Shown: positions 6,619 to 23,554 of the stretch, one piece after another | Numbering within the stretch: the stretch's first letter is position 1 | Layout of the letters: each line of letters opens with the position of its first letter | From: Planctomycetales bacterium | Lineage (GTDB): Bacteria > 4484-113 > JAFGCY01 | Direction: 5' to 3' | NCBI GenBank assembly: GCA_022646745.1 | Contig: CP060262.1 | Location: forward strand, 3,780,001-3,812,000 | Length of the DNA: 32,000 nt | The notes under the pieces: generated by a model | Databases searched by the model: none | What the model saw: the letters and a program-made list of their open reading frames with translations, nothing else | What the model was told of the DNA's origin: nothing | Program-made: the position numbers and the translations under genes

Positions 6619-8148
6619 CTACTCCACCGAGATGATCTCGGTACCAGCCTTTCGGATCTCCCGCACCAAGGAAGCAAGCCCATCATCCAGTAGCTCAATC
6701 AGGACCTCCCCCTTGGACACCGTAACCGACTTCACCAGAAGTTTGGCAATCCGTTCCTGCTCACGTGGGAACAGGTTCTCCCAGATCCGGTCGAAAACCT
6801 GTAACTCATTGGCAACTTCGCCTTTGGTGATGGGAGCCAGTTCAATGCGGTTAAATTGAGCCTTAACTTCGTTAAGCTCAATCTCCAGCTGCTTCTCACG
6901 ACCGGATTTCCGGTCACCCTCGCCGGCCTTCAATGACCGAATCTGAGCCTCCAGCTGGGTCTTGCGGTGTTTGAGCACTTCCAGCATTTTGTCCCGCTCT
7001 GAATTCAGCTGCCTTAGTATGGTCAAGTAGATCTCGTCGGTCCTCAGCGCAACTCTGATCTGTTCGACGACGAGTGCTTCCAGCTGCTTTGCCGGCACTG
7101 ATGGATTAGGGCAGAAGCGGTAACCTCTGCTTCGTGCCGTACGGCAGACATATTCGTAGTACGCCCGCTCACGAGGTCCTGCGTACTTTGGGGACATGGG
7201 TTCGTTGCAGGCCTCACAGAATACTATGTGCTTCAGCAGAGCCTGTATCTCGCTGCGCTCGCGGCTCTGCTTAATGTGCCTGTTTTGATTCAGCATGCTC
7301 TGGACCTTCTCGAAAAGCTCCTTACTGACAATCGGCTCATGCAGTCCAGTAAACACTTCACCCGTCCGGTGGTACTCCTCCTCCCCAATGTATGTACGAT
7401 TGGCGAGTAGCCGCGAGATGTATGACAAGGTGAAGGGACCAGGATCATGATATGTACCATCACGCATTAACCATGTCTTTCGAGTCTTACCTTCGGCGTT
7501 AAGCTCGCGAAACAGTTCTCCTTTTTTGGGGTTATCCGCGAAGCGCTGGAAGATCTCCTTTACCAGCTTCGCTTCATCATTGTTGACTTCGTACTGCTTG
7601 GTGACCGGGTGAATGTCGTATCCAAGAATTGGCCGGCCTCCAGTACGAATTCTGCGCTGTCGCATGGAATATGCCTTGTCACGCTGGCGTTCGCATGTTT
7701 GATCTAGTTCGAACTCGGCAAATGAAAGTAGTACATTAATCATCAATCGGCCTGCCGCCGTAGACCCATCCAAGTCCTGTGTGACTGAGACTAGGTCAAC
7801 TTGGTTTGCTTCGAGCAAAGGATACACTCTTTGAAACTCAGCCATCCTGCGAGCAAAGCGGTCCAGCTTATATACGAGTAAGACGTCAAACTTGTGATCT
7901 TGAACATCCTGAAGCAGTTGCTTGAATTGAGGTCGGTTGTCACTTTTTGCGGAAACACCGGCCTCGCGGTATTCATGCACAAATTGCCAATTGCTCTCCT
8001 GCTTCTTGTCAATCGCCTTCAAGCACCGAGAGAGCTGGTTATCCAACGACGTAAACTCAGTCTTAAGCCCTTCTTCACTACTGACCCGTGTGTAAACGGC
8101 ACACCGTTTTTTGTCGTTGGAATCTGGTTTCTTCGAAAACATACTCAT
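6619..8148 (-). CDS. Large serine recombinase (resolvase/invertase N-domain + recombinase domain + Zn-ribbon + coiled coil).
   Basis: The N-terminal KRCAVYTRVSSEEGL carries the catalytic-serine signature. DRFARR and resolvase-type core motifs are present. The Zn-ribbon reads CEACNEPMSPKY..YEYVCRTARSRGYRFC. The C-terminus is a long charged helical region. Total length is 509 aa. Confidence 0.92.
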   Translation of the reverse strand: MSMFSKKPDSNDKKRCAVYTRVSSEEGLKTEFTSLDNQLSRCLKAIDKKQESNWQFVHEYREAGVSAKSDNRPQFKQLLQDVQDHKFDVLLVYKLDRFARRMAEFQRVYPLLEANQVDLVSVTQDLDGSTAAGRLMINVLLSFAEFELDQTCERQRDKAYSMRQRRIRTGGRPILGYDIHPVTKQYEVNNDEAKLVKEIFQRFADNPKKGELFRELNAEGKTRKTWLMRDGTYHDPGPFTLSYISRLLANRTYIGEEEYHRTGEVFTGLHEPIVSKELFEKVQSMLNQNRHIKQSRERSEIQALLKHIVFCEACNEPMSPKYAGPRERAYYEYVCRTARSRGYRFCPNPSVPAKQLEALVVEQIRVALRTDEIYLTILRQLNSERDKMLEVLKHRKTQLEAQIRSLKAGEGDRKSGREKQLEIELNEVKAQFNRIELAPITKGEVANELQVFDRIWENLFPREQERIAKLLVKSVTVSKGEVLIELLDDGLASLVREIRKAGTEIISVE

Positions 8149-8157
8149 CGCAATCCC

Positions 8158-8613
8158 CTAGGTGGGAATCCCCCACCATTTCCTTCCATTCTTCCTATTT
8201 CCTGCAATGACGGATGCTGCTGCTGAAGGAGACAGGTACTTTTTCCCGTTGACATCCACCCCCCGGTCAAGGATTGTCAGCGTGTATTCCTGCCCTTTAT
8301 GGACCCTCTTGTATTTGGTCCCCGCCGGCGGCAACCACCGCTTTTGTTGTTCAGGCTTTCCCTTCTGAAGAAAGGTGAAGCCGTCAAGCGGATCAACTCT
8401 TTGTTCTTCCAGCGCGCGGTGTAATTGCCCCCTGAGAACCTCGGAAACAGCACCATGCATGAGTTCCTGAACTCGGTAGCTCAGGCGACGAATGAGATGG
8501 CTGCGGGAGTACGCTGGTGGCTCTGTTCCCATCAGTTCAACCCAACGGATCTTCAGATCTTCTGTTGAAGATTTTTCCAGTTCCGCCAACGCAACCAGCA
8601 CCTTGTCATTCAT
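8158..8613 (-). CDS. DUF2924 domain protein, the canonical upstream partner of large serine recombinases.
   Basis: LKIRWVELMGTEPPAYSRSHLIRRLSYRVQE..GTKYKRVHKGQEYTLTILDRGVDVNGKKYLSPSAAASVIAGNRKNGRKWWG fits the DUF2924 pattern as I recall it. The ATG at 8613 is preceded by GGAGGA. The track start at 8661 is less likely. Confidence 0.8.
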   Translation of the reverse strand: MNDKVLVALAELEKSSTEDLKIRWVELMGTEPPAYSRSHLIRRLSYRVQELMHGAVSEVLRGQLHRALEEQRVDPLDGFTFLQKGKPEQQKRWLPPAGTKYKRVHKGQEYTLTILDRGVDVNGKKYLSPSAAASVIAGNRKNGRKWWGIPT

Positions 8614-8881
8614 GACATCCTCCGACATTATTGCCATGCAATGAACGCTCGCGGTCGCCAATCAAGTCAAGTGCTTCGGTCGGAGAATTCTGCGAATCTG
8701 CGTAATCGGAGGCGGTGTTATTCAGTCCTTCGGATCTGAGGCGAACCAGAGCACGAGAGAGAAGCTGCCCGATTTCGATGACACGATCCGAGGAAGTCAT
8801 TACTCCAGGTGGAACCTGGCTAACACTGCCAACCCCGAGATCGTCTGGGGAATCCGTTTTACCCGTAGAGTTCTTTCGCAC
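8606..8881 (-). CDS. Possible small hypothetical protein upstream of the DUF2924 gene.
   Basis: It is the only ORF in the 8614-9128 gap, is co-directional, and overlaps the DUF2924 start by 8 nt. It has a GTG start with no clear SD and no recognisable family. Confidence 0.25.
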   Translation of the reverse strand: MRKNSTGKTDSPDDLGVGSVSQVPPGVMTSSDRVIEIGQLLSRALVRLRSEGLNNTASDYADSQNSPTEALDLIGDRERSLHGNNVGGCHE

Positions 8882-9128: not shown

Positions 9129-9857
9129 CTACTGCAGAATTGCCTTAGTGTTCTTCTGGCGAGCCAAACTCAGACCGGCGCGAGTCCCCTTCACCAGTTC
9201 GGTATGATTGTCAATCAGCAATTCAGGGGTCAGATGTTCACGCTGCCAGCGAGATACCCAGGCCAGAATTGTCTTCTTCGTCGGCATCTTTTCACCTTCA
9301 GCGAGTACGTCTTCTGCCCGCAGCTTCTTCTCTTGGAAGCGAATCAGCTTATAAAAATCGTACCCTGTTATGCTGCAGTCTGGTGATAGTTGAAGATACC
9401 TGACCTGGAATCTAATCATACGAGCCGATTTTCCATTTTTGATTGATGGGAGCTTTGTGACATTCCACAACTCCCTTTCAATGAGACCATTCGCGTTCAG
9501 ATCTTTAATCATAGCCAGGAAATGAAGGTAGTCACGCAAACAGCAGATCAGCATCATTCCACGCCCGCTGCTGATTTCCACTTTCAGTTTGTAGGAGTTT
9601 GCTGCCCCACGGTTTACCTGTATATACAGGTAATCCATACACCTGATTCCACGTGCCCTTGCATCGTTTAAGACAGCCTCCGCCATAACGGCGGTGAAAG
9701 ATGTCAGCAGGGCTCCCATGCCTGGCCCAACAATTCTTCCAAGTTTGGCAACCCTATGGGTGTCAATCACTAGACCATCAACCTTTAGATAAGGGTTTGC
9801 ACCCAGGCTCGCCCGGAACTTAGCAAGTTGTCGCTTCTGAAATGGAGGTCGTCGCAT
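9129..9857 (-). CDS. Hypothetical protein (242 aa).
   Basis: This is a clean 729-nt ORF. There is no SD, but TTGACA-N16-TAAACT-N6 sits directly upstream of the ATG, which is a leaderless geometry. No family recognised. Confidence 0.6.
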   Translation of the reverse strand: MRRPPFQKRQLAKFRASLGANPYLKVDGLVIDTHRVAKLGRIVGPGMGALLTSFTAVMAEAVLNDARARGIRCMDYLYIQVNRGAANSYKLKVEISSGRGMMLICCLRDYLHFLAMIKDLNANGLIERELWNVTKLPSIKNGKSARMIRFQVRYLQLSPDCSITGYDFYKLIRFQEKKLRAEDVLAEGEKMPTKKTILAWVSRWQREHLTPELLIDNHTELVKGTRAGLSLARQKNTKAILQ

Positions 9858-9863
9858 GACGAA

Positions 9864-9891
9864 AGTTTAACGGTCCAAGCAATATTGTCAA
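9864..9891 (-). promoter_or_regulatory. Candidate sigma70-type promoter producing a leaderless mRNA for the 9129..9857 gene.
   Basis: On the minus strand, TTGACA (9891-9886) is followed by a 16-nt spacer, TAAACT (9869-9864), 6 nt, then the ATG at 9857. There is no SD between them. Confidence 0.3.
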
Positions 9892-11053
9892 TTGATTTCT
9901 TTGTCTCGAATAACATCCAATAATACAATTGAAGAATTGCGAGTGCATGCATTTCCTCCTATCATAACCTGGCAACGCACAACTAATAAAGATATGTCTT
10001 TCGAACTGCAGTTAATAGGCCAACCTCTTGACCAGCATGAACACTTGCCTCAGGGCACTTGACTCACACGGCGGTCGTCAAGAGCTTTTGGAGCACACTG
10101 CCTGAAATTCCCCCGAATTGCACCCATCTGACTGCCTGGGGATGTGATCGCGTCAAGTGCTTTGAGTGGTTGACCATCTAGTGCCCGGCCTTGTCCCCGG
10201 CAGCACGGGACGCATTGCATAGGGTGGAATTGCCGGTTACGCAGATGCCCGCGCACCCGCACTACTCGACAAGTACATTGGTGGGCCTTGCTCCACGAGC
10301 TTCGAACCTATTTCGAGGATAGCATGAATGACATGTAGAAAGTCAACTCCCTTGTCATTCAACTGCTTCTGATGGCTCGTATCTGTGCCTTCCACGAGAC
10401 CATGGCGGACGAGAGGAAACTTGAACCTCTTGCCTACGTGGACATCATGCATGCACCTGCTAGTCTCAGTACACTCACCTAGAATTCTCCGGTTCGTAGT
10501 GGTCCCAGGACGGCCTCTGAGGACCTGATTCCGTCCTGGTTTACCTATTCCTAAGGGTATTCTTAGGCTAGGAATAGGCAGTGCTTCACGTAAACCCGCT
10601 TCCAGACTGTGTAAACAGGCTGTTGCTCCCATCCAAAATGAACCCGACTCCGCCCCTCCCGCCGCCTGCATCACAAGCAGTCTCTGGTCGGGCTGGCGAG
10701 GCCGTGGAATACGGCCTTGAATTCGCCAGCACTTCGTGGCGGGTCGGCGGTGAATTCGCGCGGTAATGAGTACCGCGCGAGCCGACTGTGCGCGGGAGTT
10801 TTGGGTTGTTTGTTAGTTTTAGAATTTAGTTGGTTTGAAGGAATTGAATTGAATGAATGCTTGCCCACATCTCCACGGCACGGATACTCTTGCCAGCTTG
10901 CTACGAGATTATTCAGGTCTCTTCGCTGGCGCTGGCGCAACTGCCGTGGATATAACCGCCTGCCGGCTGACCGGCTGGCTTGGACAAGGAGTGGTTTAAC
11001 CTCGTGTAAAATTGTTATGCTGTGTCCTTTCTAAGGAATTGCTGACATCAAAA

Positions 11054-12409
11054 ATGCGCTTCATTGATCTATTTGCAGGCTTAGGTGGATTTAATCTCGC
11101 CCTGACATCGCTGGGACATGAGTGCGTGTTTGCGTGTGAAATTGAATCGCATCTTCAAGACTTGTACGAAGCAAACTTTGGTCTCCGGCCCGCTGGAGAT
11201 ATTCGGTCAAAAGGTCTTATTGCTTCAATTCCCGAGCACGACATACTTTGTGCTGGCTTCCCTTGTCAGCCCTTTTCCAAGGCTGGCGAACAGAATGGAC
11301 ATGATTGCCCTCAGTGGGGAGACCTTATTAACTACGTTCTCGAAATTCTAAGCACCCATCAACCAAGCTATGTGATCCTCGAAAACGTCCCCAACTTGGA
11401 GAAGCACAGAGGAGGTGAAACTTGGCGTCAACTAAAGAAAAGGCTTGAGCATTGGCGACGCGGATCTTTCACGATAGACAGTAGGATACTCTCACCTCAT
11501 TCCTTTGGAGTACCGCAAGTTCGTGATCGTATGTTTATAGTGGGCTCACGACATGGCTTGGAACACTTCAAATGGCCTTCAGGCGAAGGCTACCCAACTC
11601 CTGATCTGAAGTCTATCCTGGACACAAATCCACCCGAAGCAAAACCGCTATCAGCCGAAGCTATCCGCTGCTTGGATGTGTGGCAGGAGTTCTTGTCTGC
11701 TTTTCCCACATCAGAGGGGTTGCCATCCTTCCCAATATGGACAATGGAATTCGGCGCTGATTACCCATTTGAAAAACGTGCTCCATATTCTTATGGAAGA
11801 GCCTACTTGCAGAAATTTCGCGGATCATTTGGTCAACCGCTAACCTTACTGCCAGCCTCTCGTGTCATGGATGGTCTTCCACCTTATGCAAGACAAGCTG
11901 TTGACAAGTTTCCAGAGTGGAAAATCACTTTTATCAGGCAGAATCGTAGTTTCTATCAAAAACACCATTCTTGGTTAGATGACTGGCTTCCCAAGATACG
12001 TGAGTTTAACCCTAGCTATCAAAAGCTTGAATGGAACTGCAAGGGCTGCCCCCGAAAGATCTGGGACTATATCATTCAGTTTCGTCCATCAGGGGTTCGA
12101 GTCAAACGACCGAATACATCACCAAGCCTAGTGGCAATGACGACGAGTCAGGTGCCTGTTATTGGCTGGGAAAAACGCTTCATGACTCCACGTGAAGGAG
12201 CAAGACTCCAGAGCATGGATGAACTTAATCACTTGCCAGACGCTAGTACCCGTGCATACGAAGCTCTTGGCAATGCACTCAATGTGCAACTCGTCAGACT
12301 TATAGCGAAAGCGCTAGTACCCAGCGTTGATCAGCCCACAACAGTTACTGTGGGCGAGAACTCTGCAAAGGACTTGCCAATTAAGGTAGGAGAACGAGCT
12401 GCCCTATGA
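11054..12409 (+). CDS. DNA (cytosine-5)-methyltransferase.
   Basis: C5-MTase motifs appear in canonical order: I DLFAGLGGF, IV GFPCQPFS, VI LENVPNL, VIII GVPQVRDRMFIVG, then a long variable (target-recognition) region, then TPREGARLQS and GNALNV. The start is placed at the ATG 11054 (MRFIDLFAG), not the track start 11012. Confidence 0.92.
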   Translation: MRFIDLFAGLGGFNLALTSLGHECVFACEIESHLQDLYEANFGLRPAGDIRSKGLIASIPEHDILCAGFPCQPFSKAGEQNGHDCPQWGDLINYVLEILSTHQPSYVILENVPNLEKHRGGETWRQLKKRLEHWRRGSFTIDSRILSPHSFGVPQVRDRMFIVGSRHGLEHFKWPSGEGYPTPDLKSILDTNPPEAKPLSAEAIRCLDVWQEFLSAFPTSEGLPSFPIWTMEFGADYPFEKRAPYSYGRAYLQKFRGSFGQPLTLLPASRVMDGLPPYARQAVDKFPEWKITFIRQNRSFYQKHHSWLDDWLPKIREFNPSYQKLEWNCKGCPRKIWDYIIQFRPSGVRVKRPNTSPSLVAMTTSQVPVIGWEKRFMTPREGARLQSMDELNHLPDASTRAYEALGNALNVQLVRLIAKALVPSVDQPTTVTVGENSAKDLPIKVGERAAL

Positions 12410-13974
12410 ATGCTAGTCCACACGAAGATGTAGGTGGCACGGTTGGGATTCGACCCGGTGTCAGCATCTTGTCCGTGCTTCGACATCTCAACTATCGGCC
12501 TTGGTATGCCATAGCTGAATTCGTTGACAATTCACTCCAAAGCTATCTAGCACATAAATTAGCGCTGCAAGACGGAAGGCAAGCAATAGAAGCATTGCGA
12601 GTGGAAATCAGTCTTGAGAATGACCCTGAACCACGACTCGTAATTACCGACAACGCCGCTGGAATTTCCGCCCTCGATTTTCCAAGAGCATTTAGGCCAG
12701 CTGCAATTCCAACCGACACAAGCGGTCTGTCGGAATTTGGCATGGGAATGAAAAGTGCTGCCTGCTGGTTCTCACCTCGATGGATCGTCCGAACTAAAGC
12801 ACTTGGAGAACCAGTTGAGAGAATTGTGACATTCAACATTGCTCAGATCATTAAAGATGAGATTGAAGAACTGGCTATTGAAACTCGGCCTTCAAAACCA
12901 GAACATCACTTCACTGAGATTCAATTGTTGGATTTGCACGAACCTCCGCAGGGTAGGACAGTTGCAAAAATCAAGGAACACCTTGCAAGTATCTATCGTA
13001 TGTTCATCCGAAATGGTGAAATGAATATCTTCTACAAAGACAAAGAACTTAGCTTTGACAATGTGGGCATTCTAAATGCACCTTATTACAAAGAGCCGAG
13101 TTCTGATCCAGTTACTTGGTTCAAAAAAATAGACATGGATTTTGGGGCTGGTCATCGAGTAACAGGATTTGCCGCTTTGCGTGACCCAGGCAGCACTACT
13201 CATGCTGGTTTTGCGCTTTTCCGGCGCAACCGATTAATTCAAGGCAGTGCAGATGATGGCTATAGACCGTATCAAGTGTTTGGCGCTCCAAATAGATACC
13301 CGTACCAGCGTCTCTTCGGTGAACTGCATATGGAGGGATTCGAAGTTTCCCACACTAAAGATGGGTTCCGCTGGGACGATGGACTAGAGGATACTTTCCT
13401 TGAGCTGCTAAAGGAAGAGCTAAACAGCGCTCCACTTCCACTAATTACGCAAGCAGAGAATTTCCGAGCTCGGAAGTATAAAGCCGATTGGCGCTCTGGG
13501 GCTGAGAAGGCCGTTGCCAATACAGCAGATACCCTTGAAAAAGAGGCGATACCAGTCTTAGAAACGGAACGTGAGACACCCCCTTCAATTTCCGAGTTGC
13601 CTAGTGAGTTAGATGAACGCACATTGGTAACTAAGCAAGAACGCACGCTAGAATTCCGCAATGATACTTGGCAAGTCACTATTGAGCTTACTTCAGATGC
13701 AGCAGTTAGTGACTGGTTAGAGATTAGGAATAATGAACAACAACCGGTTACAGCTGATGGAAGAGTTGTCAGACACCTTGGAATTCGAATTTCTTTGGAG
13801 CACCCATTCATGCAGAGGTTTTGTGGGTTGTCATCCGATGAAATGGAACCATTGATTCGCTTGGCAGTTGGTATTGCTCTTTCCGAGGTTGTAGCTAGAG
13901 AAAGTGGTGTCCTTCAAGCGGGGACATTTCGCAGGGTATTGAATGACTTACTTGCCAACGCTCTAGCATTATAG
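12406..13974 (+). CDS. GHKL-superfamily ATPase (HATPase_c_3 / prokaryotic MORC-like).
   Basis: The Bergerat-fold boxes are present: AEFVDNSLQS (N box), ITDNAAGIS (G1) and SEFGMGMKSAACW (G2). There is an ATGA stop/start overlap with the methyltransferase at 12406-12409. Confidence 0.85.
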   Translation: MNASPHEDVGGTVGIRPGVSILSVLRHLNYRPWYAIAEFVDNSLQSYLAHKLALQDGRQAIEALRVEISLENDPEPRLVITDNAAGISALDFPRAFRPAAIPTDTSGLSEFGMGMKSAACWFSPRWIVRTKALGEPVERIVTFNIAQIIKDEIEELAIETRPSKPEHHFTEIQLLDLHEPPQGRTVAKIKEHLASIYRMFIRNGEMNIFYKDKELSFDNVGILNAPYYKEPSSDPVTWFKKIDMDFGAGHRVTGFAALRDPGSTTHAGFALFRRNRLIQGSADDGYRPYQVFGAPNRYPYQRLFGELHMEGFEVSHTKDGFRWDDGLEDTFLELLKEELNSAPLPLITQAENFRARKYKADWRSGAEKAVANTADTLEKEAIPVLETERETPPSISELPSELDERTLVTKQERTLEFRNDTWQVTIELTSDAAVSDWLEIRNNEQQPVTADGRVVRHLGIRISLEHPFMQRFCGLSSDEMEPLIRLAVGIALSEVVARESGVLQAGTFRRVLNDLLANALAL

Positions 13975-13983
13975 GAACTTACA

Positions 13984-16185
13984 GTGGATAACGATGTTAT
14001 AGAGGTAATTGAGGAGCAGCCAAGCCCATACTCCAAATGGTCACCTAGACAGGGGCGAAACACCCTTGCATTATTGGCGCGACTGTTTCCAGAGGATCAG
14101 TCTGCACGTGAGAGATTGGCACAGGAAGCAACTTCCGTCTTATCCTGCTGTATACCTCCTACGCAGTCTGATGGCGTGGACACGGGATTAGTTATTGGAT
14201 ACGTACAGAGTGGCAAAACCGCCAACTTTACCACCATTGCTGCATTGGCAGCGGATAACGGTTACAAACTAGTCATAGTGATTTCAGGCGTAGTAAGAAA
14301 CTTATTCAATCAATCCTGTGACAGGCTTCGGGATGACCTTGGTGTAGCTGAAGGCAATCGAGGTTGGTTATATCTACAGAATCCTACTCGTGCTCGAGAT
14401 GCAGCATCATTGCGAGCTGCGCTCACATCTAGACCACTAGCAGGAATTGAGCCTAGAACCACTTTGATAGTAACTCTAAAACACACTTCTCACATTCGAA
14501 ATCTCACGAACCTTCTGGCTAGCATTGGTGAGAATTCAATACCAACCTTGATAATTGATGATGAAGCTGACCAGGCTAGCTTGAACAATCGTGTAAGGCA
14601 GGGGGACGTTAGTGCAACATATCGCAGTATTGGTCAGTTGCGAGCAACGTTGCGCCAGCATACTTTCTTACAATTCACGGCCACGCCGCAAGCCCCTTTG
14701 CTCATTAGCATTTTAGATGTCTTGTCTCCGTCGTTTGTAGAGCTTCTAACGCCAGGCGACGAATATGCTGGAGGCAGGACATTTTTCGAAGACGAACGAC
14801 AGGCAAGGCTCATAAGAGAAATCCCGCCTTCTGATATTTCGACAAGAAATAATCTTCTGACGAGCCCTCCTCGAAGTTTACTCAGCGCTTTGGAGTTTTT
14901 TTACATAGGAGTTGCAGTTGGAATTTTCAGGGGCGAGCAAGCTTACAAGAACAGATCAATGTTGGTTCACCCAGACAAGAGTACTTCATCACACGCTCAG
15001 TATGCTAGATGGATTCTATCTACTCAGGAGGAATGGCGACGAATTCTTGAAGCTCAGGATACTGATGCTGACAGAATAGAGAGATTATCATTGTTCGAAC
15101 GAGCTTTCAACGATCTGCTCAATACAGGTATGGAATCGCCACCTTTCTCGGAATTGATTCCATATATTCAGTCCGCACTTGCAATCACGCAGGTTTGCCA
15201 AGTAAATTCAACACCTGCCAACCTTGAACCGCAATGGCGACAAGAATATTCCTGGATCGTGGTTGGAGGTGACAAGATCAATCGCGGCTACACCGTTGAG
15301 GGACTTACAGTAACATACATGCCTCGCGGGATTGGTGGCAGCAATGCTGACACAATCCAACAACGGGCACGATGGTTTGGTTATAAAGCATCATACCTTG
15401 GATTTTGCAGGGTCTATCTGACCCAAAACGTACGGCAAGCATATGTGGATTATGTAGAACATGAGGAAAGTGTCCGTAGAGCGCTTCACCAGCATCGGCA
15501 ACAGCGCTTGAGCGTACGCGATTGGAAGCGATTATTCCTGTTGTCAGCGAATTTACGTCCAACGCGTGATCAGGTAATCGACAGTCCGTACTTCCGAGGT
15601 GGACAGCCAAATTCTTGGTTCAAGATTTCTACTCCTCTTTACGACATTCAAACTACAGACCAAAACAGAGATGCTGTCAACAATTTGCTTAACAGCCTTG
15701 ATTTAACAGAACTAAGTGGAGATCCCCGCAGAACCAAAATGCAAACGCCCAAAGTTGGCAGATTATCAATGACTGAAATTCTCGAAGGGTTTTTTGCTGA
15801 GCTTACGTGGCCTGATCCAAGCGATGCCCTCCAATTCAATGGAATACTGTTCCAGATTGGCAACTTCCTTGATACCAATGCAGATGAAGACGTAGTAGTA
15901 TATGAAATGGCAAACGGCAAAAGTAGAATGCGCCCGGTCAATGCGCAAGGTCGAATCACATCCAACCTTCACCAAGGTGAAAATCCTCCCTCAAGAGGTG
16001 ACCAAATCAGTCGAGGCGAAGTCTATCCAGGTGACGTTGCCATCAGGGACAGCAATCAGCTTTCAATTCAGATTCATTGGCTTGATCTAGAACAGAATAA
16101 AGTCAATGTTGCACGTCGTGTTCCGGCTCTCGCGATTTGGCTTCCGAGGAGAATAGCGAGAAGTTGGGTCGCACAGAATCAGTAA
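13984..16185 (+). CDS. Z1-domain P-loop NTPase.
   Basis: Walker A is GYVQSGKTANFT and Walker B is TLIIDDEADQASLN, followed by FTATPQA. This is the pattern I associate with Z1-domain proteins. It has a GTG start 9 nt after the preceding stop, with AGGA upstream. Confidence 0.8.
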   Translation: MDNDVIEVIEEQPSPYSKWSPRQGRNTLALLARLFPEDQSARERLAQEATSVLSCCIPPTQSDGVDTGLVIGYVQSGKTANFTTIAALAADNGYKLVIVISGVVRNLFNQSCDRLRDDLGVAEGNRGWLYLQNPTRARDAASLRAALTSRPLAGIEPRTTLIVTLKHTSHIRNLTNLLASIGENSIPTLIIDDEADQASLNNRVRQGDVSATYRSIGQLRATLRQHTFLQFTATPQAPLLISILDVLSPSFVELLTPGDEYAGGRTFFEDERQARLIREIPPSDISTRNNLLTSPPRSLLSALEFFYIGVAVGIFRGEQAYKNRSMLVHPDKSTSSHAQYARWILSTQEEWRRILEAQDTDADRIERLSLFERAFNDLLNTGMESPPFSELIPYIQSALAITQVCQVNSTPANLEPQWRQEYSWIVVGGDKINRGYTVEGLTVTYMPRGIGGSNADTIQQRARWFGYKASYLGFCRVYLTQNVRQAYVDYVEHEESVRRALHQHRQQRLSVRDWKRLFLLSANLRPTRDQVIDSPYFRGGQPNSWFKISTPLYDIQTTDQNRDAVNNLLNSLDLTELSGDPRRTKMQTPKVGRLSMTEILEGFFAELTWPDPSDALQFNGILFQIGNFLDTNADEDVVVYEMANGKSRMRPVNAQGRITSNLHQGENPPSRGDQISRGEVYPGDVAIRDSNQLSIQIHWLDLEQNKVNVARRVPALAIWLPRRIARSWVAQNQ

Positions 16186-16203
16186 AGGTCTCCGGGGTCT
16201 TCC

Positions 16204-17220
16204 GTGCAACTTAATTTCTATGATAGATTTTTGGAATTGAAACCACCAGAGTCCTCGCACACTTCTTCATCGTATTCTGTGATTGAGTTACCAGATATTC
16301 CAGACATTCGTATTGGCAAGAGCCGGGATCTCAAACCAGCGATTCTGATTAATCTCTCTCTTCAATCAGAATTGTCAACTCCAGTGCCACCTATCAGACT
16401 TCGCCATATTGAGATTTACTCTAATTCACTCTGCCGCATACATTTACAGAATGGTGCAACCAGTGAAGAGAGACTTGCCTTAGTAGTTTGTCGTTCTGAT
16501 GACATCCAGCTTCAGTCTTATTTCCTAACAGTTCTTCCGATGATATTCGCAACTCACTTCGAAGCACAAGCTAATGACAATATAAATTCTGCCTTGTCTT
16601 CAGTTGCAGAATTGTTCAAGTTGATCGAAGAGCCGCCTCACAAATCAGTGCAAGCAATATGGTCTGAGCTACTTCTCATTGAGAGATCGAGCGATCCCTC
16701 TCGAATGTTGTCTGCCTGGAGAAATGGAGTCCATGATAAATACGACTTTTCAGATGGGATGAACAGACTAGAAGTAAAGTCCTCATCTCGTGGAGTAAGA
16801 ATTCACACGTTTAGTCTTGACCAACTCATGGCTCCACCCGATGTGACAGTCGTCATTGCTTCACTGTTAGTGAGAGAACTAGCAGGTGGAAGCTCAATAC
16901 GAAACTTGGTCAATGGGATCAGAAAGAAATGCTCTGACCCAACACTTTTGCTGAAGTTGGAAACTGTCATAACAAGAACGCTAGGAGCTTCCACTCCACA
17001 GGCTATTGAGGTTACGTTCGATCTGCCATTCGCCTTGGATGAGTTGCGTTACTACAATGCAACAATAATACCTGCTGTGAATCCTCCAATTCCAGGAGGT
17101 GTAAGCAATGTGCGTTTTGATTCTGACTTGGCATTTTGCTCTGTCTTAGTCCCATCAGCACTGTCTAACGACGAGAATTGTTTAACATCATTACTTACTA
17201 AGCCCAACAATATTATCTAG
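16204..17220 (+). CDS. PD-(D/E)xK motif protein (DUF4420-like predicted nuclease).
   Basis: DKYDFSDGMNRLEVKSSS gives a D..(E)xK nuclease core. The gene lies immediately after the Z1 gene, as in the recurrent dcm/HATPase/Z1/DUF4420 clusters. It has a GTG start and no in-frame ATG near the N-terminus. Confidence 0.7.
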   Translation: MQLNFYDRFLELKPPESSHTSSSYSVIELPDIPDIRIGKSRDLKPAILINLSLQSELSTPVPPIRLRHIEIYSNSLCRIHLQNGATSEERLALVVCRSDDIQLQSYFLTVLPMIFATHFEAQANDNINSALSSVAELFKLIEEPPHKSVQAIWSELLLIERSSDPSRMLSAWRNGVHDKYDFSDGMNRLEVKSSSRGVRIHTFSLDQLMAPPDVTVVIASLLVRELAGGSSIRNLVNGIRKKCSDPTLLLKLETVITRTLGASTPQAIEVTFDLPFALDELRYYNATIIPAVNPPIPGGVSNVRFDSDLAFCSVLVPSALSNDENCLTSLLTKPNNII

Positions 17221-17905
17221 CTTGTTGAGTTTCAGCCCAAAGACCGCCCCAGAAACCAACTTCTAAAGCGATCATATCATGCGTCCCCAACTTGACTAAC
17301 TCCTGGTTTTCTGAAGTCTCAACCCAAGGGGCAATGGCTCTCATAATGTCTGAGTAGTGATCATCGTCCCATTCTGCATGTACAAGCCAGAATTCCACAT
17401 CCTTTTCTGTCAACCCCCTTTTCATTAGCCCTTCTGCAATTAATTTGTACTCGGGTGCCGTAAAATACTCGGTACCTGGTCCAAGCGCTCCTAGACCCGT
17501 TAGGAAATGCGTGTCACGACAAACAGAAATCATTTTCTCTACGTAACCTAGGGTTAATGTTGTCGGAATATAGGTGTTTAACTCATCTACTGATACGCCA
17601 ACAGAATGTGCGAAACGCTTGAATAGATTTCTGTGCGAATTGCTGATATCACCACTTCCATGCTCTTCCCAAAGGTTGGTGATTAATATAGAGCGAGTTT
17701 CATCATCGGGAACGTTTGCCGCCACAAATGCAACACCCTTAACAAAACTTGTAGAAACGAAGTAGTATTCCCGAGTAAAAAACTTAAGAGCCTCTGAAGA
17801 GAGTTCGTTTCTATTTATTGCTTTTATAAAAGGATGATCAATTATGTCTCTGGATAGATTCGTTGCATACTCTTCTAGCTCTATCACAAACTCTTGCGCA
17901 TTCAT
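17213..17905 (-). CDS. Heme-oxygenase-like di-iron / iron-containing redox enzyme family protein (CADD/PqqC-like fold).
   Basis: LKFFTREYYFVSTSF..ITNLWEEHGSGD..SHRNLFKRFAHSVG..EFWLVHAEWDDDHYSD supplies the Glu/His ligand pattern typical of CADD/PqqC-type helical di-iron proteins. There is a 6-nt gap after the ALDH gene. Its stop overlaps the convergent DUF4420 gene by 8 nt. Confidence 0.75.
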   Translation of the reverse strand: MNAQEFVIELEEYATNLSRDIIDHPFIKAINRNELSSEALKFFTREYYFVSTSFVKGVAFVAANVPDDETRSILITNLWEEHGSGDISNSHRNLFKRFAHSVGVSVDELNTYIPTTLTLGYVEKMISVCRDTHFLTGLGALGPGTEYFTAPEYKLIAEGLMKRGLTEKDVEFWLVHAEWDDDHYSDIMRAIAPWVETSENQELVKLGTHDMIALEVGFWGGLWAETQQAR

Positions 17906-17911
17906 GCCTCA

Positions 17912-19411
17912 TTATCCTCCTTGAGACTCAGAATAAGGGAACCACCAATCGCGCTTTGCTTCAGTAGTTAACTCCAATGAAATATGCTTTGGACGGCAAT
18001 ACTGCCTGATTGCATGCTGTGAAAGCTCAAATCCAACTCCACTTTGCTTAGTTCCACCCCAAGCTGCCTGTGGGAACGCCACGTTGATGTCATTTATCCA
18101 GACCATCCCAACTTCTAGCTTTCTTGCCACGCTCTCAGCCAACGATAAATTAGAACTCCACACTGAAGCCCCAAGGCCATAATTGCTAGAATTGGACTTT
18201 ATAACTGCTTCATCAATAGTATCGAAGACATTTATAGGCATTACGGGTCCGAAACACTCCTCAGTCATAATACGCGACGTTTCAGGAACATCTGAAAGAA
18301 TTGTTGGAATATAGAAATTTCCATCTAAGCTCAGATTCTGACTTCCCCCATGTAATAACTCTGCACCGTTAGTAATGGCATCAGCAACAAAGTCTTTTAC
18401 AGAGTCCATTTGCTTGCCTGATATCAGAGGACCAATATCAACTCCTAGCCTAAGTTGAGCAGTCTTCTCAACAGCGGACTTAATAAACTCTTGTGCAATA
18501 CTGCGATGTACAAAAACTCGCTTCGGCCTGACACAAACTTGACCTGCATTGCAGAACGCCCCCCAAACTAGCCCATTTGTTGCTAATTCCACATCAGCAT
18601 CAGCCAACACTATTGCTGCGTCATTTCCACTAAGTTCTAGGTTGTACTTACAAAGTCGAGATGCACAATGTGACGCGATCTCAAGTCCCACTGGCACACT
18701 ACCGGTGAAGCTAACTACATTAACTCCAGGATGTCTGGCCAATACAGCGCCTGTTGTGCCGTCTCCGAGAACCATGTTGACAACACCTGGTGGAAAACCA
18801 GCCAACTCAAACAATCCAACGAGAAAACTTGCAGTTTCGGAGGAGTGCTCCGACGGTTTCAGAATTACGGTATTCCCTGCAACCAATGCAGGGCCAATAG
18901 ACCAAACAATCAATTCCAATGGGTAATTCCAAGCCTTGATTAAGGCTACTACTCCGAGAGGCTCCCACTGGTGCTTACTTTTCTTACTCGGCCAGATAGT
19001 TTCATCTAATTCAAGAATTTCATCCGTAATTTCACTTTCGGCAACCTGCACCATGTACCTAAACATGTCTACACTTTCCATCACTTCTATATCTGCTTCA
19101 GCAAAAACTTTGCCCACTTCTCTTGTGATCAACTTCTTCAAATCTGTTCTTTCAGAGGGAGACACAAATTGCTCATCAAGCAAATCTGCCACCTTATCCA
19201 AGTAGGAACACCGTTCGACAACCGATAGGGATTGCCACGCAGGAAGAGCTGCCTTTGCGGCGGCGACAGCCTCGTTAATCTCAATTAAACCGCCTATTGG
19301 GAGCTGTGACTTGGGCTCTCCACCTCCTGGCAGTTCGATCTGAACCCAATCAACCTCTGTACCCGAGGTCCAATTGCTATTGATAAAATGGCGTAGATGC
19401 TTGCGTTGCAT
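17912..19411 (-). CDS. NAD(P)-dependent aldehyde dehydrogenase family protein.
   Basis: ALDH signatures are present: LELSGNDAAIV (general-base Glu motif), FCNAGQVCV (catalytic Cys), EECFGPVMP and GTKQSGVG. Length is 499 aa. Confidence 0.9.
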   Translation of the reverse strand: MQRKHLRHFINSNWTSGTEVDWVQIELPGGGEPKSQLPIGGLIEINEAVAAAKAALPAWQSLSVVERCSYLDKVADLLDEQFVSPSERTDLKKLITREVGKVFAEADIEVMESVDMFRYMVQVAESEITDEILELDETIWPSKKSKHQWEPLGVVALIKAWNYPLELIVWSIGPALVAGNTVILKPSEHSSETASFLVGLFELAGFPPGVVNMVLGDGTTGAVLARHPGVNVVSFTGSVPVGLEIASHCASRLCKYNLELSGNDAAIVLADADVELATNGLVWGAFCNAGQVCVRPKRVFVHRSIAQEFIKSAVEKTAQLRLGVDIGPLISGKQMDSVKDFVADAITNGAELLHGGSQNLSLDGNFYIPTILSDVPETSRIMTEECFGPVMPINVFDTIDEAVIKSNSSNYGLGASVWSSNLSLAESVARKLEVGMVWINDINVAFPQAAWGGTKQSGVGFELSQHAIRQYCRPKHISLELTTEAKRDWWFPYSESQGG

Positions 19412-19423: not shown

Positions 19424-19495
19424 CTGTATGTGCCCACCGAAGGCGAGTAAGCCTCTTCACGCTTCGGAGGTTAGTTGTAATAATTGGTGATAGAT

Positions 19496-22270
19496 ATGTC
19501 AAATGTCAGAAAATTGGCGCACATCCTACACTTGTCTGATATTCAGTTTGGAAAATTTCATCGATTTCCAAATGGTTCAAATCGTGTTCAAAGCCATCAA
19601 GACTTAGATACAACGCCTTTATCTGAACGATTAGTCGAAGATATTGAGAAATTATCAAGTGTGTACAATATTCAGCCAAACTTTCTGATCTTAAGCGGCG
19701 ATGTAGCTGAATGGGGTCTTATGCGTGAGTTTGAAATGTGCAAACACCTTATTGAGGCACTAATCGCGTCCAGCTCGACAGATCTTCAGCCTGAACGAGT
19801 GATTATAGTACCAGGTAATCACGACATCAACAGAGACCTGTGTCAAGCATATTTTCTTGAATGCAAGGCAAATCAAGCCGAACCTGAACTACCTTATTTG
19901 CCAAAGTTCAGGTTCTATGATAACTTTGTAAACTCTGCTCCATCATTCTTTTCATCAGCAACCGGTGATAGAAATCCAGTAGTTTCTAATTACATACAGG
20001 ATTTTGGCCTTATTGTCACGGCATTCAACTCTTGTCTTAAAGAAAGTCATAAGCCTGAAGATCATGTTGGCTATATCGGTAGGCAGAATGTCCGACAAGC
20101 CATTAAAAAGATACAAGAGTTAGATCGAGAACATCAAGCGATTCGGATTGCTGTTCTTCATCATAATGTTATTAGGAATAGTGGAGAAGATAATCAGCAC
20201 CTTATAGACTGGAACGAGGTTCGAAGAGATATGTTATCTACATTCGATATCATTCTTCATGGTCACCGTCATCATGCTGAGCACCAGATATTGCAACTCC
20301 CTCAATCTCACCACGTTCTCATCTCTGGTGCCGGTAGTGTTGGACTATCTTTGAATCAAACATCAGGTATTCAAAATCATTATCAGCTAATTTCTATAGA
20401 ACAGGATATTGCAACTATTAGGGGACGTACTTACGAACTGCGTGGGGCAAGAGCAAACGAAACCTATGGGGAATTTACTGCCAAATTTGAGCAGGGATCG
20501 GAAGTCGTCGAAGTGAAACTGCGTAACTCCTTATCAGCGAACACCACTTCACAGGCAAGTTCAACAATTGATATCAGAGAATATTTAAACAACTCTAGTA
20601 AGTCTTTGCAAAGCGTAATTGAAAGGTCTTTAGACAGGATTGGCTCACACATTCCGTTGGAATGTGATTTGATATTATCAGGTGGCAAACGACAAGATCC
20701 TAGTGGTTCATTTAGTCTAGAAGAGTATTTTAACGATTGGTTAGGCAACACAAGCAATAGGCTTATATTGATTGCGGGTGCGGGCGGTGGAAAAACAACC
20801 TTTGCAGTCAATGCTGCCAAGCTACTTTCTACCAACTATTTAGATACCAATTCGGGAATTATTCCCATATACATAGATTTAAGTCTCTATAATTCTGAAG
20901 AGAGCATACTATCTATATTACTGGCAAATTTCAGAAGTAAGAGAGTGTCTTGTACCACTGAGGCAGTAAAAGAAGTGCTCGCAACACAAGAGATACTTCT
21001 CTTTTTAGATGCATTTGATGAGTACGATATTGGTCCAACATCAGCTTCATTCATCCGTGAGTTCATTGATTTCCATGAAATAGAAAAACCAAATATTAAA
21101 ATTGTAATCGGTTGTCGAGACAATCACTTCAGGAGTGTTGAAGATATACTAGTTCGTGAATCACGGCAAGGATTTCAATTGTGCCCTGTTTACGCTACAG
21201 TGATTAAATTGAAACCATTATCTTATGAGATAATCAATGAAGTACTCTCGCCATTATTGGGTGAACATAAAGTTTCAACCTGGATATATGATGTTGTATC
21301 CAATCCCTTGACCCTAAAGATGGTGGTATCCCTTCTAAAGTCTGGCAGCATTCAACCTGCCAATTTGTCAACATCTCAATTGACTCGTCATGAGTTGTAT
21401 GAGCAATTCATTACAAATATGATAAATTGGGATTTGCGGAAAAAAACTGCCCCCCATCTTCTTGATCAAAGGAAAATCAGAAAAGTGCTCATTCGAATTG
21501 CTGAAGTGCTGTTGGATCGTGGAGAAGCTTCACTTATGTTAGATCATTTCGACATAGTCGTCGAAGCTGAACTTGGCAAAGAAATTGCATCGAGTGAAAT
21601 CCAATTCCTACATGAACTGGCTGTTCTAGGATATGAAGGGGGAAGAATAAAATTCGTACATAAAGCTTATCGCGAATACTTGTATGCTAGAAAGATTGCC
21701 AATGATATTGCCATTGATGAGCGAGATTTTCAACTTCATTGGTTTACTCGGAATGAACGACACTTCATTGTAGAAATGTTAAGTGAGACAGAGATAGAAA
21801 CATTGTTTGACTGGTTGTCTGACCACGGCAACTGTCCTGCTAGTAACTATGCTGCGTTTATTCTGGGAGGAGTTGCTAAATCCAATGTTGAATCAGCCCT
21901 TAGAATGGCTCTCAACCGGTCGGACGACCCATTGTTAAAAATTAACTGCTGTAACTCATTAGCAGGTCTTGGAGTTTCAGACATATGCTCTCAGTTATTG
22001 GGAGCTGTTGCTGGTCATGCATTGGAGGAGGGGTTAATTGATCAAATGCCTGAACAAGGTTCTGAGGAATCAAAGGATTGGTTTAAAGAATTGCAGATAA
22101 AGTATGAGCGACGTTCTGTAATGATTTTACACTTATGTGAAATGATCGAAGCATTAGGTTTTTGTGGTTTGGACTTGTGTAAAAATGTGTTGGACTGTTT
22201 AAAGCTACACGAAAATCAATTGGTTCGAGAGGAAGTAAAATCGACCTCCAATAAGCTGTTAAATTGCTAG
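19496..22270 (+). CDS. STAND NTPase with an N-terminal calcineurin-like metallophosphoesterase, a central NACHT-type P-loop and C-terminal HEAT-like repeats.
   Basis: MPE motifs are HLSDIQFG, SGDVAEWG, VPGNHD, VLHHN and LHGHRHH. The NACHT part has Walker A LIAGAGGGKTTFA (~20776-20799) and Walker B ILLFLDAFDEY. HEAT-like repeats read AAFILGGVAKSNVESALRMALNRSDDPLLKINCCNSLAGLG..VREEV. The ATG at 19496 with GGTGA 5 nt upstream is preferred over the TTG at 19484. Confidence 0.85.
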   Translation: MSNVRKLAHILHLSDIQFGKFHRFPNGSNRVQSHQDLDTTPLSERLVEDIEKLSSVYNIQPNFLILSGDVAEWGLMREFEMCKHLIEALIASSSTDLQPERVIIVPGNHDINRDLCQAYFLECKANQAEPELPYLPKFRFYDNFVNSAPSFFSSATGDRNPVVSNYIQDFGLIVTAFNSCLKESHKPEDHVGYIGRQNVRQAIKKIQELDREHQAIRIAVLHHNVIRNSGEDNQHLIDWNEVRRDMLSTFDIILHGHRHHAEHQILQLPQSHHVLISGAGSVGLSLNQTSGIQNHYQLISIEQDIATIRGRTYELRGARANETYGEFTAKFEQGSEVVEVKLRNSLSANTTSQASSTIDIREYLNNSSKSLQSVIERSLDRIGSHIPLECDLILSGGKRQDPSGSFSLEEYFNDWLGNTSNRLILIAGAGGGKTTFAVNAAKLLSTNYLDTNSGIIPIYIDLSLYNSEESILSILLANFRSKRVSCTTEAVKEVLATQEILLFLDAFDEYDIGPTSASFIREFIDFHEIEKPNIKIVIGCRDNHFRSVEDILVRESRQGFQLCPVYATVIKLKPLSYEIINEVLSPLLGEHKVSTWIYDVVSNPLTLKMVVSLLKSGSIQPANLSTSQLTRHELYEQFITNMINWDLRKKTAPHLLDQRKIRKVLIRIAEVLLDRGEASLMLDHFDIVVEAELGKEIASSEIQFLHELAVLGYEGGRIKFVHKAYREYLYARKIANDIAIDERDFQLHWFTRNERHFIVEMLSETEIETLFDWLSDHGNCPASNYAAFILGGVAKSNVESALRMALNRSDDPLLKINCCNSLAGLGVSDICSQLLGAVAGHALEEGLIDQMPEQGSEESKDWFKELQIKYERRSVMILHLCEMIEALGFCGLDLCKNVLDCLKLHENQLVREEVKSTSNKLLNC

Positions 22271-22599
22271 CGGACATCCATTGTGAAAGAACACGAAGGA
22301 CAATCTATATGCTTCGGGTGATGCAGACACTTAGGACAACGACCGTAGTAATTACCAGGGCGAGAGTATCCGCATTCACACTTCCAAGCCCCCAACAGTT
22401 CTATTGTATGCCCGCAGAAGCGACAAACCAAATGTTCATGTGCCAGTTGCCGGAACCGGCGAGTAGCTGGAACCCTCATGCAGATGTAGTCATACAGGTA
22501 TAGAAAGAAGCGAGACCACAGGATTCCAGACGCAATTTCCCAGAAAGACTTGAGCCCCTTCTGGGCTTCCTGCACTCCATGTTGAATCGGATCAGCCAT
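22267..22599 (-). CDS. Small Cys-rich (4x CxxC-type) double zinc-ribbon protein with a hydrophobic N-terminal segment.
   Basis: The Cys pairs are CRFCGH..CECGY..CPKC..CPSC. The ATG at 22599 is preceded by GAGG at 8-nt spacing. It overlaps the Replic_Relax stop by 8 nt. Confidence 0.6.
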   Translation of the reverse strand: MADPIQHGVQEAQKGLKSFWEIASGILWSRFFLYLYDYICMRVPATRRFRQLAHEHLVCRFCGHTIELLGAWKCECGYSRPGNYYGRCPKCLHHPKHIDCPSCSFTMDVR

Positions 22600-23554
22600 T
22601 GTCAAACCTCAGTGCATCCAGCAGACTCAAGCGTTTGATATCAGTAATCTCGGCCTGCTTTAGCACCTGCTCATTGCGTAACCTGTACAGGTCAGTCCCA
22701 CGCACCCACAGCTTGGCTAGTGCGGAGTCTGGTGCAATCCCATCAAAGGTCGTAAACCAATACCCACGCCTGCCGCCAGAGGCGACTGTTTTTTCCGCGA
22801 TGGAGACCAGCCGCTTCTCGCTGGTGGTTACGGTTAGCAGTATAGCCCAGTGTGAATGCCACTTGGCTTCCAATTGCGCACTTTGCGTAAATTCTCGATA
22901 GACCTCTACCTTTTCCTGCCAGCGTCCGGTGGACATAGTACCCCGATCAACCTCAATGAAGTACACGCCATGCTCTCCCTCTGGTGGTTGCAGAAGTAGA
23001 ATCGCATCTGGGATGACTGACTTGTTGCGCCGGTGGCCGTCCTTGTCCATGAGCTGGACTGTCAGCTTGTGTTGCTTTGGATCTCCGCGAATGATGAGGA
23101 AGTCCTTCAGTTCGCCCTGGCTCTTGGCTCTGGTCAGTGCATGCTGGTACGAGATGAGCATGTCATTGATAGCAAGCAGGTGCTGGATATGAGTCGGTTG
23201 AACCTTGTTGAGATACCTGTTCCACTTTATTTGCTTGCGGTCTACGCCGTCATGTTCAGCCAGAAGGCCAGCACCTTTCTCGGTCATGGCATAAATCAAC
23301 CCTTCCTGTGAGGAAGAGACTGGGAGCTGGATTCTGTCGAGGTAGCCGTGATGGTAGAGATAGCGTAGGCGGACAGTCAGGTTCTTCTCGCTCGAATCAG
23401 GAAACAGCCACCAGACCTGCCGGGTGGAGAGGAATCGGTTTGAAAGCACTGCATGGAGTATCTCAAAGTCCCGCTCCACCAATGTGAAGCGAGGCGGATT
23501 CTTTGCCCGCTTTGTTCTCGGCAACCTTTTATCATTAGGTTTTTCTGGTGACAT
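22592..23554 (-). CDS. Replication-relaxation (Replic_Relax) family protein.
   Basis: The N-terminal wHTH-like region reads FTLVERDFEILHAVLSNRFLSTRQVWWLFP..LTVRLRYLYHHGYLDR..IYAMTEKGAGLL. It is followed by IPDAILLL..VYFIEVDRGT, typical of this plasmid/ICE family as I recall it. Confidence 0.75.
   Translation of the reverse strand: MSPEKPNDKRLPRTKRAKNPPRFTLVERDFEILHAVLSNRFLSTRQVWWLFPDSSEKNLTVRLRYLYHHGYLDRIQLPVSSSQEGLIYAMTEKGAGLLAEHDGVDRKQIKWNRYLNKVQPTHIQHLLAINDMLISYQHALTRAKSQGELKDFLIIRGDPKQHKLTVQLMDKDGHRRNKSVIPDAILLLQPPEGEHGVYFIEVDRGTMSTGRWQEKVEVYREFTQSAQLEAKWHSHWAILLTVTTSEKRLVSIAEKTVASGGRRGYWFTTFDGIAPDSALAKLWVRGTDLYRLRNEQVLKQAEITDIKRLSLLDALRFDNG

Follow-up and report, generated by a model that had tools for sequence, protein, structure and literature searches.

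What does a bacterial MORC-type GHKL ATPase do when it is encoded in one operon with a DNA cytosine methyltransferase, a helicase-like motor and a putative nuclease? The question is raised by positions 11054–17220 of a 32,000-nucleotide (nt) stretch of the Planctomycetales bacterium assembly GCA_022646745.1 (contig CP060262.1, positions 3,780,001–3,812,000, forward strand), hereafter the window. This 6.2-kb cassette consists of four whole, co-directional open reading frames (ORFs) with zero internal stops; the start of ORF2 overlaps the stop of the dcm gene (ORF1) in an ATGA, and gaps of 9 nt (ORF2–ORF3) and 18 nt (ORF3–ORF4) separate the remaining genes:

11054–12409, plus strand: Dcm-type C5 cytosine DNA methyltransferase (ORF1; ATG start, 451 amino acids)
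12406–13974, plus strand: MORC-type GHKL ATPase (ORF2; ATG start, 522 amino acids), with a Bergerat ATP-binding fold at residues ~30–170, an S5-like middle bearing a MORC motif and, at ~350–522, a C-terminal region of lower conservation
13984–16185, plus strand: helicase-like motor (ORF3; GTG start, 733 amino acids)
16204–17220, plus strand: DUF4420 PD-(D/E)xK-type putative nuclease (ORF4; GTG start, 338 amino acids), with a variable beta-rich N-terminal domain (~1–145), a conserved E-D-ExK core (~146–235) and a C-terminal helical region

The first-pass annotation, made from the sequence alone, had reported this gene arrangement together with C5-methyltransferase motifs in ORF1, Bergerat boxes in ORF2, Walker A and B motifs in ORF3 and a PD-(D/E)xK core in ORF4, and all of these were recovered on the window sequence, confirming the observation as real and correctly described. 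Its further statement that the system lacks a mechanistic description stands in so far as the literature searched, which left out most subscription journals, yielded no experimental work on the Dcm-linked cassette of four genes, but is overstated: the cassette is another member, from a Planctomycetales metagenome-assembled genome (MAG), of a computationally known and experimentally untouched family that lies between CglI and MZA, each of which has been characterised in part. We consider it probable that the cassette works as a restriction-modification-like system, in which Dcm (ORF1) would mark self DNA and the MORC ATPase (ORF2) would act as an ATP-gated dimerising clamp, bridging or licensing motor-nuclease units. 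The comparable functional reading of the annotation (self-marking methylase, GHKL protein plus motor, nuclease as effector) is thus reasonable but unproven.

Pfam profiles matched the four proteins as anticipated (DNA_methylase, HATPase_c_3, PF10593 and DUF4420 in ORF1–ORF4, respectively). Judged by its sequence, ORF1 is a bona fide C5 methyltransferase, with matches to DNA_methylase (PF00145; E-value 1.5e-59, 202.5 bits, cut-off 22), to TIGR00675 dcm (177.9 bits, cut-off 100.65), over its full length to the PADLOC DruM-type methylase PDLC00034 (7e-71) and over its catalytic half to M.HhaI (8e-40). The catalytic motifs FAGLGG (I), PCQPFS (IV), ENV (VI), QVRDR (VIII) and GNALNV (X) lie at residues 7, 70, 110, 155 and 406, respectively. 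Between motifs VIII and X extends a variable target-recognition (TRD) region of ~195 amino acids, whose conservation among ORF1 homologues from 62 loci matches that of the catalytic core (median identity 53% versus 54%), and the main cassette family therefore probably shares one common target sequence. ORF2 matched HATPase_c_3 at 5.7e-14. Eight of its residues are invariant in 47 homologues, namely those of the four GHKL (Bergerat) motifs (E38/N42, D82/G86, G112/G114 and T170) and the basic residue K318 (in HTKDGF). The segment GFALFRRNRLI at residues 268–278 corresponds to GhXhhpXXRhl, the S5-domain motif that separates MORCs from other GHKL proteins (Iyer et al. 2008); within it, G268 and L271 are invariant and R276 is nearly so. 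Searched against the PDB, the ORF2 family profile gave weak matches to MutL and HtpG only (E ~0.05), confined to the ATPase region.

ORF3 matched PF10593 with 141.1 bits (cut-off 25) and the REBASE-derived PADLOC profile PDLC03202, 'Type II helicase domain protein', at 8.8e-49. Its Walker A (VQ75SGKT, with Q replacing G), Walker B (DDEAD, D192–D196), motif VI (QxxR spacing, Q460–R463) and H/H motif (H329/H337, eight residues apart) are invariant in 30 homologues, and it carries DTIQQRARWFG, equivalent to the DThhQXuRhFG signature of Iyer 2008. A structure model of moderate confidence (mean predicted local distance difference test (pLDDT) 68, N-core poorly modelled) found superfamily 2 (SF2) helicases and translocases as its best Foldseek matches (Dbp5 at 2e-4 with probability 0.98, Mfd, CSB and Hel308). 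Neither sequence nor profile nor fold comparison linked the C-terminal domain to any PDB chain, including the crystallised H.CglI domain. ORF4 matched DUF4420 (PF14390) over residues 23–309 (2.4e-22; 80 bits, cut-off 27), and five of its residues (E155, D181, K192, H201 and Q207) do not vary in either of two alignments, of 50 and 57 homologues; E190 is fully conserved in one alignment and almost so in the second. The N-terminal domain is far more variable than this E-D-ExK core. In a confident AlphaFold model (pLDDT 91, predicted template modelling score 0.89), a helix (149–161) followed by three strands (182–184, 187–194 and 200–204) bears the motif residues. Foldseek returned no PDB match for this model at E <= 0.001, with EcoRV at rank 22 (probability 0.14), and the designation as a putative nuclease therefore rests on motif, modelled topology and family membership; an identical protein from a Planctomycetales MAG is named 'PD-(D/E)XK motif protein' by NCBI. 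None of the four genes is disrupted, and every catalytic residue is present and conserved.

An ORF3-homologue profile was used to retrieve relatives from species-representative genomes, and at least 484 of the first 600 pattern matches listed encode one, so that the full number is higher. The 80 loci kept for comparison span Proteobacteria, Acidobacteriota, Chloroflexota, Bacteroidota, Planctomycetota, Verrucomicrobiota, Nitrospirota, Actinomycetota, Armatimonadota, Myxococcota, Gemmatimonadota, Poribacteria, one lineage of the candidate phyla radiation and others. Cultured carriers include Acidithiobacillus concretivorus ATCC 19703, Galbibacter orientalis DSM 19592, Chitinophaga eiseniae, Aureimonas flava and, on a plasmid, Rathayibacter festucae. 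The four-gene linkage proposed by the annotation recurs: a C5 methyltransferase lies within 6 kb in 65 of the 66 loci with room for one, and in 56 of these 66 it opens the cassette and overlaps or directly adjoins the GHKL gene. The link to a C5 methylase is hence near-obligate, and gene packing is tight across phyla, with overlapping or abutting ends. As the annotation had noted, an AIPR partner is missing. AIPR, MzaA and MzaE were all absent from the cassette, whose first gene is dcm, and from the scanned neighbours; neither Vsr nor AIPR was found in the window, and no AIPR, MzaA or MzaE cluster recurs beside the cassette in the 80 loci. The same loci yielded no generally conserved fifth gene or upstream controller, with small ribbon-helix-helix-like ORFs nearby in three to four of them, and the four genes are thus a self-contained unit without AIPR.

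Several loci depart from this standard form. Some carry decayed copies in which one gene is split: GHKL in L010 and L021, Dcm in L030, and DUF4420 in L036. Such split-gene erosion is often met in restriction-modification loci. Three variant cassettes (L066 2201–5401, L067 7052–9949 and L009 6827–9934) encode a GHKL protein of ~970–1070 amino acids with an N-terminal extension, which in L066 bears a 'Methylase-associated X1' (MTaX1) domain. Their Dcm is of a different type and lies downstream in L066 and L067 and in opposite-strand overlap in L009, where DUF4420 was not detectable.

Vsr, with Pfam confirmation, is the most frequent neighbour of the cassette and occurs at 18 of the 80 loci; integrases and recombinases come next. 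The frequency of Vsr brings up a role in repair linked to 5-methylcytosine (5mC), in which the three module proteins, as MutL-like ATPase, helicase and endonuclease, would jointly process T:G mismatches or lesions arising from 5mC deamination, analogous to very short patch (VSP) or mismatch repair. ORF2 does belong to the MutL/MORC branch of GHKL ATPases, the combination of a MutL-type ATPase with a helicase and a nicking endonuclease recalls MutL-UvrD-MutH, and Miller et al. associate one of their system types with DNA-repair endonucleases. We nevertheless regard such a role as very improbable: there is no MutS-like mismatch sensor, Vsr comes on top of DUF4420 rather than in its place, a travelling methylase of its own would be needless for repair, and the spread of the cassette is patchy, mobile and tied to defence islands. 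Its nearest characterised relatives, moreover, are a restriction enzyme (for the motor) and an anti-phage system (for the three-gene module).

The architecture corresponds to the third type of prokaryotic MORC operon predicted computationally by Iyer, Abhiman and Aravind (2008), the study cited in the annotation. That type comprises a MORC protein, an SFII helicase whose C-terminal domain has the DThhQXuRhFG signature, an uncharacterised E-D-ExK protein and often Dcm and Vsr; the cassette reproduces it with its S5-motif GHKL protein, DTIQQRARWFG helicase, E-D-ExK protein and Dcm, with Vsr present beside some relatives. We see no structural difference between the two, and to that purely computational description the present analysis adds the same gene order in 56 of 66 loci, self-containment without AIPR and a structure model of the nuclease. 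Three core families are also common to the cassette and the systems of Miller et al. 2022, whose type II is likewise tied to a MORC protein and was likened there to mzaABCDE.

For the motor, the closest comparison is CglI/NgoAVII (Zaremba 2014, PMC4267653; Toliusis 2018, PMC5861437), which shares the motor family, and the H329/H337 spacing of ORF3 equals that of H282/H290 in H.CglI. In CglI, however, the nuclease is a phospholipase D (PLD)-family protein with a B3-like DNA-binding domain, whereas ORF4 is a DUF4420 PD-(D/E)xK protein; CglI has no GHKL/MORC subunit, and the C-terminal domain of ORF3 has no detectable resemblance to the crystallised H.CglI domain. Membership in the CglI/NgoAVII type was accordingly rejected on account of ORF4, which is not PLD/B3, and the extra GHKL gene. 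Type I, Type ISP and Type III systems likewise unite methyltransferase, SF2 helicase-like motor and PD-(D/E)xK nuclease, and ATP drives their long-range communication along DNA, but they use other motor subfamilies, N6-adenine methylases and a different subunit organisation and lack a GHKL protein; none of the PADLOC Type I or Type III models matched the cassette. Two further candidates were set aside. The three-subunit restriction system BsuMI, considered as an experimentally characterised member, is, like LlaI, described as a non-canonical McrBC homologue (bioRxiv 10.64898/2026.08.31.748284), and Pfam found no AAA+/McrB profile in ORF2–4; the VcSduA/paraMORC3 Shedu is a different GHKL-nuclease fusion and not applicable as a model.

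For the three-gene module, the relevant comparison is mzaABCDE, whose validation as an anti-phage system is credited to Gao et al. 2020. An E. coli version confers 10^3- to 10^4-fold protection against T4 derivatives, its purified MzaD degrades phage DNA, and its activity varies with the cytosine modification of T4 DNA, with unmodified T4(C) restricted at least as well as modified phage (bioRxiv 10.1101/2022.06.16.496414). MzaB, MzaC and MzaD are remote homologues of ORF2, ORF3 and ORF4 in identical order, whereas MZA has no methylase and includes two proteins that the cassette does not encode, MzaE (AIPR) and MzaA, reported to be a sigma factor. ORF2 of the window has no match to the NCBIfam MzaB profile, and ORF3 and ORF4 score far under the equivalog cut-offs of MzaC (108.9 bits, cut-off 1500) and MzaD (0.0037; 16.5 bits, cut-off 420). 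At family level the matches are weak (MzaB by 24 of 47 ORF2 family members, best 2.8e-8; MzaD by 36 of 50 ORF4 family members, best 2.5e-9), and these profile scores therefore indicate remote homology rather than membership.

This homology nonetheless carries the main rival to a restriction-modification-like function, an MZA-like mechanism that operates independently of methylation, as mzaABCDE protects without any methylase. In seven loci a similar module is paired with an unrelated Dcm type, and this keeps such a mechanism alive. In an exploratory mirror-tree comparison of 49 complete cassettes, in which pairs are not independent and no significance test was applied, the domains of the restriction module correlated with r 0.80–0.89 and Dcm was less coupled (r 0.50–0.68), so that Dcm and module have co-evolved more loosely than the parts of the module among themselves. 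We still judge methylation independence to be unlikely, because such near-obligate and translationally coupled linkage to dcm is the hallmark of a methylase that protects, because two parts of the validated system, MzaA and MzaE, are missing and because similarity to the Mza proteins is remote. Within the favoured restriction-modification-like scheme, the mirror-tree correlations, as hints only, are compatible with the ORF2 C-terminus as a hub and with a stand-alone methylase. The search for the DNA-reading subunit through the divergent-Dcm loci and the mirror-tree likewise gave no more than hints, as divergent loci are few and the TRD of the main family is conserved.

The T4 data bring up a further reading, a Type IV-like nuclease directed against foreign modified DNA, with a Dcm unrelated to self-protection. 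Apart from the shift of mzaABCDE activity with T4 cytosine modification state, it can appeal to eukaryotic MORCs, which work in methylated chromatin (Iyer 2008). This reading appears barely plausible to us, as a C5 methylase in the same operon would make the substrate of a 5mC-dependent nuclease and hence be suicidal, mzaABCDE restricts T4(C) without the modification, and Pfam finds no known 5mC reader (SRA, McrB/Mrr DNA-binding domains) in the four proteins.

To our knowledge, no bacterial MORC ATPase has been studied biochemically in a native restriction-modification setting. The value of the cassette lies less in being a new kind of system, which it is not, than in offering a compact, widespread and tractable model of bacterial MORC ATPases near DNA methylation. 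Being compact, self-contained and present in cultured strains, it is a practical system in which to study the role of a MORC clamp beside a DNA translocase and a nuclease, and its control by methylation. A 2008 proposal derives from bacterial MORC ATPases the MORC proteins that silence chromatin in eukaryotes in concert with DNA methylation. The cassette would also link CglI, through the motor, with MZA, through the three-gene module, and fill a gap in defence annotation: the proposed PADLOC check succeeded in part, PADLOC 2.0 recognising the methylase and the helicase but not calling ORF2 and ORF4.

The cassette lies within a stretch of low G+C content (~0.39–0.48 between ~11 and 25 kb, versus 0.54–0.62 farther out), which is surrounded and occupied by the following genes:

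6619–8148 and 8158–8661, minus strand: large serine recombinase and its DUF2924 partner, on one side of the low-G+C stretch
17213–17905, minus strand: iron-containing redox enzyme (TenA/haem-oxygenase-like family), convergent to ORF4
17912–19411, minus strand: aldehyde dehydrogenase, following the redox-enzyme gene
19484–22270, plus strand: metallophosphatase-NTPase protein of 928 amino acids, with an N-terminal calcineurin-like domain and a P-loop NTPase-like middle
22592–23554, minus strand: Replic_Relax gene, on the other side of the low-G+C stretch
23578–24798, minus strand: DUF4917 protein of 406 amino acids, PADLOC candidate PDC-S21 (8.9e-109)

The stretch looks like an integrated mobile element with a small defence island, in which the DUF4917 gene is, from its profile match, a further probable defence gene. 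The 928-amino-acid protein may belong to the STAND-like defence proteins; it has weak matches to NPHP3_N, to PADLOC PDC-S60 (3e-14) and to a model named 'Effector endonuclease' (1.4e-9). The cassette itself is mobile. Its closest relative among the matches listed, on metagenome contig L001 (proteins 62–82% identical), is the same cassette with different flanks, accompanied by a Replic_Relax gene 69% identical to that of the window and by other cargo in between. This setting raises the possibility of a selfish addiction module of a mobile element, with restriction-modification biochemistry selected for post-segregational killing rather than phage defence. The recombinase and Replic_Relax genes around the island and the Replic_Relax gene of L001 speak for such a module, as do a plasmid copy that adjoins a recombinase and the integrases and recombinases that flank the cassette in six to seven other loci each. 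We rate selection for addiction as rather improbable, given that nearby genes are defence candidates (PDC-S21 and, weakly, PDC-S60) and that most of the 80 loci have no recognisable mobility gene in their 4-kb flanks; addiction is, moreover, compatible with defence, as classical restriction-modification systems do both. In four loci (including L024 3301–4284), ArdC-type anti-restriction proteins with ArdcN and zincin-like metallopeptidase domains are encoded no more than 4 kb from the cassette, in keeping with its transport on conjugative elements.

Upstream of dcm, window positions 10723–10988 align with L001 4–255 over ~270 nt at ~71% identity, which matches the conservation of the coding cassette. 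This apparently non-coding region contains no convincing ORF, Rfam family or tRNA, and in 57 other cassettes the DNA preceding dcm does not share it; a regulatory function specific to the element or a small gene that has escaped recognition could explain it. Scans of the whole window for Rfam families and tRNAs returned nothing, and a promoter and terminator scan of 9800–17600 was uninformative because shuffled sequence gave as many sites. At the other end of the cassette, ORF4 overlaps the end of the convergent redox-enzyme gene by 8 nt (17213–17220), and this gene and the aldehyde dehydrogenase form metabolic cargo between the defence genes. Two further genes of the window were noted:

27561–28703, minus strand: class-V aminotransferase / cysteine desulfurase (PADLOC SspA and DndA, ~1e-94)
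20–4930, plus strand: SF2 helicase (DEAD, Helicase_C) of 1636 amino acids, with an MrfA Zn-binding (MZB/DUF1998-type) domain near the C-terminus

As the scanned neighbours showed no other dnd or ssp genes, the former is most likely a generic IscS/NifS-type enzyme. The helicase gene sits just outside the low-G+C island, and helicases with an MZB/DUF1998-type domain occur in DISARM-type and related defence systems.

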